A stretch of DNA of 2,543 nucleotides. It comes from Escherichia coli (GTDB lineage: Bacteria > Pseudomonadota > Gammaproteobacteria > Enterobacterales > Enterobacteriaceae). The DNA lies in assembly GCF_024298765.1 (NCBI RefSeq), contig NZ_CP101218.1; one strand, 5' to 3'. Within the stretch, counting starts at the first letter, position 1. Every line of letters begins with the position of its first letter. The notes below the pieces were generated by a model. It made no database searches. It worked only from the letters and a program-made list of their open reading frames with translations, and was not told the origin of the DNA. A program made the translations under genes and the position numbers. Shown in pieces: positions 1 through 1,739 of this stretch.

Positions 1-133
1 TGTCGAAAAGTTGCAGCGGAAAATGGGACAGGATGTGTATTCGTCATACCGCGAATACATTCGCTTGCATGAGAATACCTCCTGTCAGGGCAAGCCCCGA
101 CACCCCAAACGTGCAAAATGGAGAGTCATTGCG
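1..133 (+). promoter_or_regulatory. Leader region upstream of mobC; candidate operator or oriT-like (bom-like) region
   Basis: Seen in sequence: 14-bp palindrome GCGAAT-ac-ATTCGC (51-64), GAATAC direct repeat (53-58, 73-78), 9-bp palindrome CCTGTCAGG (81-89), and the 12-mer GCCCCGACACCC (94-105), which I recall as also present in the pBR322/ColE1 bom region. SD-like GGAGAG (119-124) lies 9 nt before the ATG at 134. The same frame is open back to position 2, so this region could instead be coding. Confidence 0.25.
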
Positions 134-559
134 ATGACTAAAAATAAACGTAGTGGTTCAGAAGTACGGCAGAGAACTAAGGTTATCACCCTTAGAGTAA
201 ATAACAGAGTCGCAAGCGAAATCAGACGGCGAGCGAAGAACGAAGGACTGACAATTTCAGAATATATCAGGACGGCAAGTTTAAATAATGAAATAAAACA
301 GCGCGTACCTTCCAGGTATTTAGATGAATTAATCCGACTTGGTCGGATGCAGAAGAAATTATTTGATAAGGGAAAGCGGCCGAAGGATAAGGAGTACCTC
401 GAGGTGATGCATAAAATAATTTTACTTTGCGATGAAATGAAAATAGTAACGAAGCGAATTTCTGATGTATATAATGAAATGGATTTAATAAAGGATGAAA
501 TAAAAATAATAAAAAGGATACATAAAGATAAATATCCAGGTTCGGATTTATTCAAATAA
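134..559 (+). CDS. mobC: Ribbon-helix-helix DNA-binding protein, MobC/MbeC-like plasmid mobilization accessory protein (141 aa). The frame is open to the window start, so alternative starts at ATG 23, TTG 11 or off-window cannot be excluded.
   Basis: ORF track frame 11..559. ATG at 134 is preceded by GGAGAG with a 9-nt spacer. The N-terminal basic tail followed by RTKVITLRVNNRVASEIRRRAKNEGLTISEYIRTASLN fits the RHH beta-strand/helix/helix pattern (R-x-I-x-L-R-V ... G-L-T-I-S-E-Y-I-R) typical of MobC-type relaxosome accessory proteins; the C-terminal half is charged and helical. TAA stop at 557-559. Confidence 0.6.
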   Translation: MTKNKRSGSEVRQRTKVITLRVNNRVASEIRRRAKNEGLTISEYIRTASLNNEIKQRVPSRYLDELIRLGRMQKKLFDKGKRPKDKEYLEVMHKIILLCDEMKIVTKRISDVYNEMDLIKDEIKIIKRIHKDKYPGSDLFK

Positions 560-1338: not shown

Positions 1339-1367
1339 ATCATAGATGCGGGGTAGCTCAAAAACAA
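1339..1367 (-). promoter_or_regulatory. Candidate sigma70 promoter for repL (-35 TTGTTT, 17-bp spacer, -10 TATGAT), overlapped by an inverted half-iteron
   Basis: On the minus strand: TTGTTT (plus coordinates 1362-1367), 17 nt, TATGAT (plus 1339-1344). Predicted start near 1332 gives a leader of about 25 nt containing the SD. The inverted half-iteron GTAGCTCAA (1353-1361) sits in the spacer. Confidence 0.3.
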
Positions 1368-1412
1368 GCATAATTTTGAGCTACGGTAGCAACAGGATTG
1401 AGCTACCGTAGT
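1353..1412. repeat. Iteron-like repeats upstream of repL: two 15-bp direct repeats 22 bp apart plus an inverted half-copy
   Basis: TTGAGCTACGGTAGC (1376-1390) and TTGAGCTACCGTAGT (1398-1412) match at 13 of 15 positions with a 22-bp period. Each has internal dyad symmetry (GCTAC-N-GTAGC). GTAGCTCAA (1353-1361) is the reverse complement of the first 9 nt. Confidence 0.55.
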
Positions 1413-1476
1413 ACAGATCCTGAAAACACGATCCCCATTTCATGCGGGTTGCGAGAGATTCCCTTCTTAGTTCTTA

Positions 1477-1573: not shown

Positions 1574-1595
1574 ACAACACTCGCGCATTGCCGTC

Positions 1596-1621
1596 GATCC
1601 CGTTTTTGATCTGCGACGATC
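1596..1621. other. Cluster of three GATC (Dam) sites within 26 bp
   Basis: GATC at 1596-1599, 1608-1611 and 1618-1621. The window has 7 GATC in total, none in the first 1415 bp and 6 between 1416 and 1727. Confidence 0.5.
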
Positions 1622-1697
1622 GCGCCGTTTGAAGGCCTCAGGAGCACCAGAACGCGTTTTTGAGGGTCTGTCAGGGGTTTGGGCGCCTTTGGCCCTT

Positions 1698-1710
1698 AAA
1701 CGCGCTCAGA
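1698..1710 (+). repeat. 13-bp direct repeat AAACGCGCTCAGA, copy 1
   Basis: Exact 13-mer also found at 2076-2088, 378 bp away. Confidence 0.9.
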
Positions 1711-1739
1711 AGCTCCCAGACGCGATCAAATGCCAACAG

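Follow-up and report, generated by a model that had tools for sequence, protein, structure and literature searches.

The window, that is, the whole stretch of 2,543 nucleotides analysed here, is almost certainly a complete small E. coli plasmid, since its ends are contiguous in a related circular plasmid and an NCBI sequence of exactly 2543 bp encodes a RepL protein 99% identical to its own. Its two protein-coding genes specify a NikA-like mobilisation accessory protein and a RepL-family initiator (Table 1). The latter matches Pfam PF05732 above the cut-off (E = 3.4e-7, 30.4 bits; cut-off 20.3), and the B. grahamii (Bartonella grahamii) Rep, UniProt Q8G8P8, is related to it at 80% identity; a search of genome contigs with RepL matched only two Bartonella loci. 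Together with the iterons and a box shared across hosts (see below), these are the hallmarks of a RepL-type replicon. The plasmid, like its relatives, is typed Col(MG828); the hosts of the relatives are Escherichia in 535 of 626 records, with Klebsiella, Shigella and Salmonella also present. These genera, like other enterics, possess Dam and SeqA, so the hosts are those in which a Dam/SeqA-type origin could operate.

Some 900 bp past repL are noncoding. Aligning it with 9 plasmids from databases and 62 loci from metagenomes divided this stretch into the features of Table 1. A search of both strands of 1250–2543 for promoter-like sites gave none, and terminator-like sites were also absent; hence a promoter or terminator at the GATC cluster described below was rejected. 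DnaA boxes were absent from 1316–2277, even with one mismatch allowed, and Rfam gave no match at E ≤ 1, RNA I and RNA II included. A ColE1-like RNA II/RNA I origin was likewise rejected, as Rfam returned nothing and BLAST against ColE1 matched the primosome assembly site only; the RNA I/RNA II pair and the primer promoter of a ColE1-type replicon are thus missing from the window.

Table 1. Features of the window discussed in the text (coordinates are those of the window).
Feature	Position	Strand	Remarks
NikA-like mobilisation accessory protein gene	11–559		
repL, plasmid initiator gene	756–1307	minus	183 aa; Pfam PF05732
RepL-type-specific iterons	~1352–1411		
Iteron-proximal GATC pair	1416/1430 (1416–1433)		
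Conserved box CCCTTCTTAGTTCTTA	1461–1476		End of conserved block
Putative ColE1-ssiA-like primosome assembly site	1513–1573	minus	
Variable unstructured spacer with GATC triple	1574–1692		
Conserved hairpin-rich noncoding module	1693–2003	plus	
Sixth GATC	1724–1727		5′ edge of conserved module; lineage-specific

The sequence-only reading had described a pas-like segment next to the GATC sites, and this segment turned out to be a genuine homologue of the lagging-strand primosome assembly site of ColE1. Positions 1513–1573 align with ColE1 1307–1367 at 81% identity over 62 nt (BLAST, E = 4e-9); measured along the RNA II-sense strand, the ColE1 copy is located about 95–155 nt beyond the origin, and it corresponds to ssiA (PMC3167613). 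The stem arms covary between the two main haplotypes of the site (GCCCA/TGGGC versus GTCGAT/ATCGAC). On the minus strand it carries the hexamer AAGCGG common to phiX174-type sites (plus-strand CCGCTT at 1518–1523). Homology, hexamer and hairpin potential, that is, the sequence features of phiX174-type (PriA, n′) assembly sites, are therefore all present, and we regard 1513–1573 as a putative phiX174-type (PriA) primosome assembly site homologous to ssiA. To act as such, its minus strand would have to become single-stranded; an active minus strand would in turn imply a fork moving leftward toward repL, with initiation taking place rightward of 1573, either within the triple-bearing spacer or past it. 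A query segment containing the assembly site matches 1271 plasmid records. In PLSDB, the module is carried by roughly 800 records and RepL by about 170.

The module that follows the spacer (about 310 bp) is approximately 90% identical in the pKL1-like 1.5-kb plasmids. It folds better than expected on both strands (z about −3.3), and 20 of its base pairs show compensatory double changes. On its plus strand G-T cells number 427 against 18 A-C cells, which points to the plus strand as the one that would be functional, either as RNA or as single-stranded DNA. In the assembly site next to it, the other strand would be the active one. It is a possibility that the module is a priming signal for a leftward leading strand. 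A kinship with G4-phage-like priming signals was rejected at the level of sequence, the only phage matches being mislabelled small plasmids, while a structural analogy is possible. An ORF at 1629–2012 was also discarded as a protein-coding gene because of frameshifting indels in relatives and of the compensatory stem changes. Perfect inverted copies of an 11-mer (AAACGCGCTCA / TGAGCGCGTTT) bracket the module at 1698–1708 and 2010–2020, and a third copy, in direct orientation, lies at 2076–2086, 66 bp further on.

Assembly site and module together behave as a cassette (1507–2003); across the metagenome contigs and plasmid records that were compared, it is combined with five or more different Rep/iteron types. 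In the pKL1-like plasmids, typed Col(MG828) as well, site and module are about 84–90% identical to those of the window and have the same orientation to rep; unlike the window, these plasmids encode a 158-aa RepA, an oriT-like sequence next to their assembly site substitutes for the iterons and box of RepL, and their spacer contains 0–2 GATC. The Col(MG828) label is thus given to plasmids with unrelated rep genes (RepL versus the 158-aa pKL1-like RepA), probably because they have the cassette in common. What Col(MG828) typing detects appears to be the module. The label appears to follow a portable noncoding cassette and not one replication gene, which affects how plasmid typing is to be read.

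The window contains 7 GATC sites, at 1416, 1430, 1596, 1608, 1618, 1724 and 2368. The clustering described by the sequence-only reading is real: three of them (the triple) fall within 26 bp (1596–1621), separated by 12 and then 10 bp, six fall within 312 bp (1416–1727, previously given as about 310 bp), and the first 1.4 kb has none (zero sites in 1–1415). The total is not enriched: dinucleotide shuffles contain 8.6 ± 2.6 sites, the window 7. A group of three within 26 bp occurred in 1.2% of dinucleotide shuffles of the whole window, in 0.14% of shuffles of the GC-rich block 1401–2210 and in 0.7% of trials in which 7 sites were placed at random; these values are to be read with the caution that some three-in-26 cluster is found for 25 of the 256 tetramers in the window, chiefly AT-rich words. 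Base composition, against which the sequence-only reading had proposed to set the cluster, therefore does not explain the triple (P about 0.001–0.012). The same block holds six GATC where 2.4–3.5 are expected (P = 0.02 for at least six), so that both the triple and the block have the local density of a Dam/SeqA-type origin. The GATC-free stretch 1–1400 has P = 0.012. Since the repL and mob genes of relatives do contain GATC, this gap is specific to the window, and restriction avoidance was rejected as its cause because the relatives do not share it.

A directly repeated 9-mer, CGTTTTTGA, had also been pointed out. Its first copy is indeed at 1601–1609, while the second is at 1655–1663, one base away from the 1654–1662 given before, within a segment (~1632–1688) missing from most relatives. 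The repeat is specific to this window and statistically unremarkable (a near repeat of this kind turns up at least once in the block with P = 0.14); being neither significant nor conserved, it was rejected as a set of iterons. The sixth GATC, at 1724, is found only in the window and in its relatives L001 and L004, the other relatives having GACGCACGAAACGG at the same spot.

The two GATC at 1416 and 1430 (the pair) have a different standing. They directly follow the last of the RepL iterons or operator repeats, which consist of TTGAGCTAC(G/C)GTAG at 1376 and 1398 with inverted copies at 1352–1363 and whose sequence changes with the RepL type among relatives. All 10 distinct enteric-type RepL origins have at least two GATC in the 50 bp between last iteron and conserved block, and these are kept despite at least six iteron types and shifting exact positions. 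Indeed, GATC is the only tetramer present in 10 of the 10 intervals, the next best reaching 5. As judged from these alignments, the pair is a conserved Dam-site cluster of the replicon clade and behaves like an origin feature. The box that ends the conserved block is kept in the RepL origins of E. coli, Bartonella, Zymomonas and Vibrio, and the RepL plasmids of Pseudomonas and the origin region of pBBR1 contain related versions of it; pBBR1 is more distant, similar in origin architecture only, and its Rep is annotated differently.

Outside the enterics, the sites next to the iterons vary with the host, at least in part. A close known counterpart is pBGR1 of Bartonella grahamii, which belongs to the RepL family (the 80%-identical relative mentioned above) and has the same layout of iterons, methylation-site pair and CCCTTCTTA box. 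Unlike the window, the Bartonella plasmids have GANTC in place of GATC: in two plasmid types, one of them that of the B. grahamii Rep family, ACAGATTCTGAAAATTGAATC stands at the pair positions and forms two GANTC sites (GATTC...GAATC). GANTC is the CcrM motif of alpha-proteobacteria. The interval in question is 1416–1433 in the window, about 380–400 in L006 and about 1616–1634 in L075. Inspection by eye, supplemented by BLAST in the case of L006, revealed no ColE1-like assembly site and no Col(MG828) module in the Bartonella sequences retrieved. In Zymomonas the origin interval holds three GANTC, one at a pair position and two close by, and zero GATC; a Vibrio plasmid has 4–5 GATC in this interval. 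GC-rich backbones related to Pseudomonas and beta-proteobacterial (Burkholderia-type) plasmids have neither motif at or near these positions, and the pair is also absent from the RepL origins of Pseudoalteromonas, Providencia and Arsenophonus. These three genera are expected to have Dam, and strict tracking of the host by the pair was therefore rejected in favour of a partial one. Furthermore, GATTC at the first pair position occurs in a Burkholderia-labelled contig as well, which makes a conserved protein-binding motif an alternative explanation for the pair. Overall, the pair in all ten enteric-type origins and the GANTC sites in Bartonella and Zymomonas indicate that methylation sites may matter to the RepL replicon family.

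These comparisons would fit a more general scheme, in which RepL origins carry, beside the initiator repeats, methylation sites matched to the cell-cycle methylase of the host, and changes of one or two bases re-tune the control of a small multicopy replicon when the host changes, the triple being an extra, lineage-specific dose. We consider the scheme in this full form rather doubtful.

The triple, in contrast to the pair, occupies the segment with the lowest conservation and the least structure. Identity of the spacer to non-sister relatives is 48–67%, against 69–93% for the assembly site and 74–89% for the module, and positions ~1632–1688 exist only in 'long-form' relatives; the spacer haplotype of the window is matched by 3 PLSDB records. 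Folded as a single strand, the spacer is not more stable than its shuffles (z = +1.6 to +1.8), and since it in fact comes out less stable than these, a hairpin or cruciform built by the GATC sites was rejected. No iterons, AT-rich unwinding element or DnaA box were found in 1574–1692, and the GC content of the region is 59%. Conservation was counted over 50 distinct variants of the stretch from assembly site to module. All three GATC are present in 9 of them, belonging to two lineages, whereas the other 41, with the same assembly site and module, have 0–1 GATC at the triple. Most of the latter differ by single bases (GATT, GTTC, GATG): 12 variants read GATC/GTTC/GGAT, 10 read GATT/GTTC/GGAT and the rest diverge further. 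Similarly, the P0023-type enteric RepL plasmids keep the iteron-proximal GATCs and have another copy of an assembly site; they do not have the module and show no GATC after the assembly site. The triple thus falls short of the conservation seen in Dam/SeqA-type origins, and, being missing from most relatives with the same flanks, it is not a required origin element.

The two lineages that keep the triple are a 'long form' (the window, L001, L004 and L032) and a 'short form' (L003, L015, L030, L031 and L043). All 12 GATC columns are identical between them, whereas the remaining spacer is 58% identical, and the L003 spacer has its closer match (73%) in the GATC-poor majority. Of the 14 non-GATC positions inside the 26-bp cluster, 8 match (~57%, counted by hand from the alignment), so that a recent conversion patch is unlikely. 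Agreement of the 12 GATC bases between lineages otherwise 58% identical in the spacer hints at lineage-restricted selection on the triple; the corresponding naive binomial value (0.58^12 = 0.0015) is post hoc and concerns two lineages. The sites are spaced by 12/10 bp in the window and by 11/10 bp in L003, which places them on one face of the helix, in the geometry preferred by SeqA, a protein that favours paired hemimethylated GATC on one helix face (PMC2691817).

GATC clusters are well known as Dam/SeqA handles at oriC and P1 oriR, whose GATC sites are conserved, required and embedded in the unwinding repeats. The window resembles these origins in having a local GATC cluster in the origin region, mostly Dam-positive hosts and a SeqA-suited spacing (PMC2691817), as well as a second GATC group, the pair, abutting the initiator repeats. 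It differs from them in that its triple is set in a variable, GC-rich spacer and most relatives do without it, only the pair being conserved, and in that the pair abuts the last iteron rather than lying inside the repeats. As for ColE1, the likeness consists in the ssiA homologue and in the three clustered GATCs that its replication region also has; in ColE1 these sites belong to the primer promoter, roughly 600 bp upstream from the origin, and none lies between origin and ssiA, and the window has a RepL initiator and iterons instead of any homology to RNA I/RNA II.

We tentatively favour the view, to which we give somewhat less than an even chance, that the triple is an optional, lineage-restricted candidate Dam/SeqA patch in the origin region, reinforcing a methylation-coupled control centred on the pair. 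Each passage of a fork would leave the three sites hemimethylated, all facing the same side of the helix, and the pair at 1416/1430 would become hemimethylated simultaneously; SeqA could then bind the sites and briefly hide the priming or loading zone, so that re-initiation would be delayed. The triple would in this way be an optional reinforcement of the conserved pair, not the element that defines the start of replication. This interpretation is favoured by a real cluster that composition leaves unexplained, by its place inside the origin region beside the ssiA homologue, by relatives residing mostly in Enterobacteriaceae, which are Dam-bearing hosts, by the 12 identical GATC bases with their SeqA-suited spacing, and by the second cluster kept in 10 of 10 enteric-type RepL origins. 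It is weakened by the 41 of 50 relatives, presumably viable plasmids, with 0–1 GATC, by the P0023-type RepL plasmids without GATC past the assembly site, by a selection signal that is post hoc and drawn from two lineages, by the incomplete host tracking of the pair and by the fact that multicopy plasmids do not need cell-cycle control.

Much of the same evidence could mean that the triple has no function. It would then be a neutral state hitchhiking in two lineages, reached by drift from near-GATC words (GATT, GTTC, GATG), a sizeable possibility in our judgement, if well short of even. The least conserved spacer of the region (48–67% identity) is where such a state would be expected, and the commonest alleles are one base from GATC in 12 and 10 variants; moreover, the triple occurs in only 9 of 50 variants, the haplotype of the window matches three records, 25 of 256 tetramers produce some cluster of this kind and the spacer contains no structure, promoter or DnaA box. 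Drift accounts less well for the 12 GATC bases shared by lineages 58% identical elsewhere in the spacer, for the helical phasing preserved in both and for the significance of the cluster (P = 0.001–0.012). The sequence-only reading had proposed that the cluster may mark the replication start zone, as GATC clusters are characteristic of Dam-controlled origins such as oriC and P1 oriR; the cluster would then be the actual start or unwinding zone, comparable to the oriC 13-mers and the P1 oriR heptamers. Several elements of this reading hold, namely the real cluster, the Dam-bearing hosts, the ssiA homologue, the SeqA geometry and the orientation of the assembly site: with that site active on the minus strand, the displacing leading strand should begin to the right of 1573, and by analogy with ColE1, in which the site is about 95 nt past the origin, the start might fall near 1600–1700, in a spacer that as single-stranded DNA folds less stably than shuffles. 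What does not hold is the role given to the triple, which is not conserved among relatives with the same flanks and sits in GC-rich (59%) sequence with no AT-rich unwinding element, iterons, DnaA box or promoter; the RepL iterons and the conserved box are about 130–240 bp leftward, the origin-like GATCs are those of the pair, and no mapped start site was found in the literature for any family member. As a whole, a start zone at the triple thus seems unlikely. Still less probable, to a degree that makes it very unlikely, is that the GATCs are incidental to the binding site of another factor or to a methylation-controlled promoter like the ColE1 primer promoter. ColE1 does have three GATC within 43 bp at the RNA II promoter, which according to Patnaik et al. 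in 1990 reportedly affect promoter strength, and a 12-mer, CGATCCC(C/G)(A/T)TTT, occurs in the window at both 1429 and 1595; nevertheless, neither strand of 1250–2543 has a promoter-like site, Rfam finds neither RNA I/RNA II nor any other family, and the bases around the three sites are not the same in the two triple-bearing lineages.

In the literature on Col(MG828)/RepL plasmids, pKL1, pIGWZ12 and pBGR1 we found nothing on origin structure or Dam dependence, nor any description of GATC-based Dam/SeqA handles for cryptic E. coli plasmids of the very common Col(MG828)/RepL kind. Should the sites be functional, they would open the timing of copy number to simple genetics in a replicon family found in enterics, Vibrio, Bartonella and Zymomonas, and would exemplify a plasmid that exchanges Dam for CcrM sites upon a change of host; if they are not, the triple is an ordinary lineage-specific quirk of sequence. 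The finding is in any case a modest one, possibly a new member of Dam/SeqA-type control in a common, uncharacterised replicon.

The remainder of the plasmid shows a modular make-up. The mobilisation module (2144–2543 plus 1–729) is 97–99.5% identical to that of L003. The segment 2023–2143, which forms its junction with the replicon module (765–2022), is missing from L001, L003 and L004, the nearest relatives of the replicon; this absence and its position between two modules suggest that it may be a recombination joint. An oriT-like region is found at 20–105, overlapping the start of the NikA-like ORF, where the minus strand reads ACATCCTG|TCCC, a nick motif of the IncP/IncI type, followed by the inverted repeat GTCAGGGC...GCCCCGACACCC. 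The same nick motif adjoins the primosome assembly site in the pKL1-like 1.5-kb plasmids. Upstream of the mobilisation region, an AT-rich stretch contains an exact 11-nt direct repeat, AGTTATATTTT, at 2226–2236 and 2269–2279.
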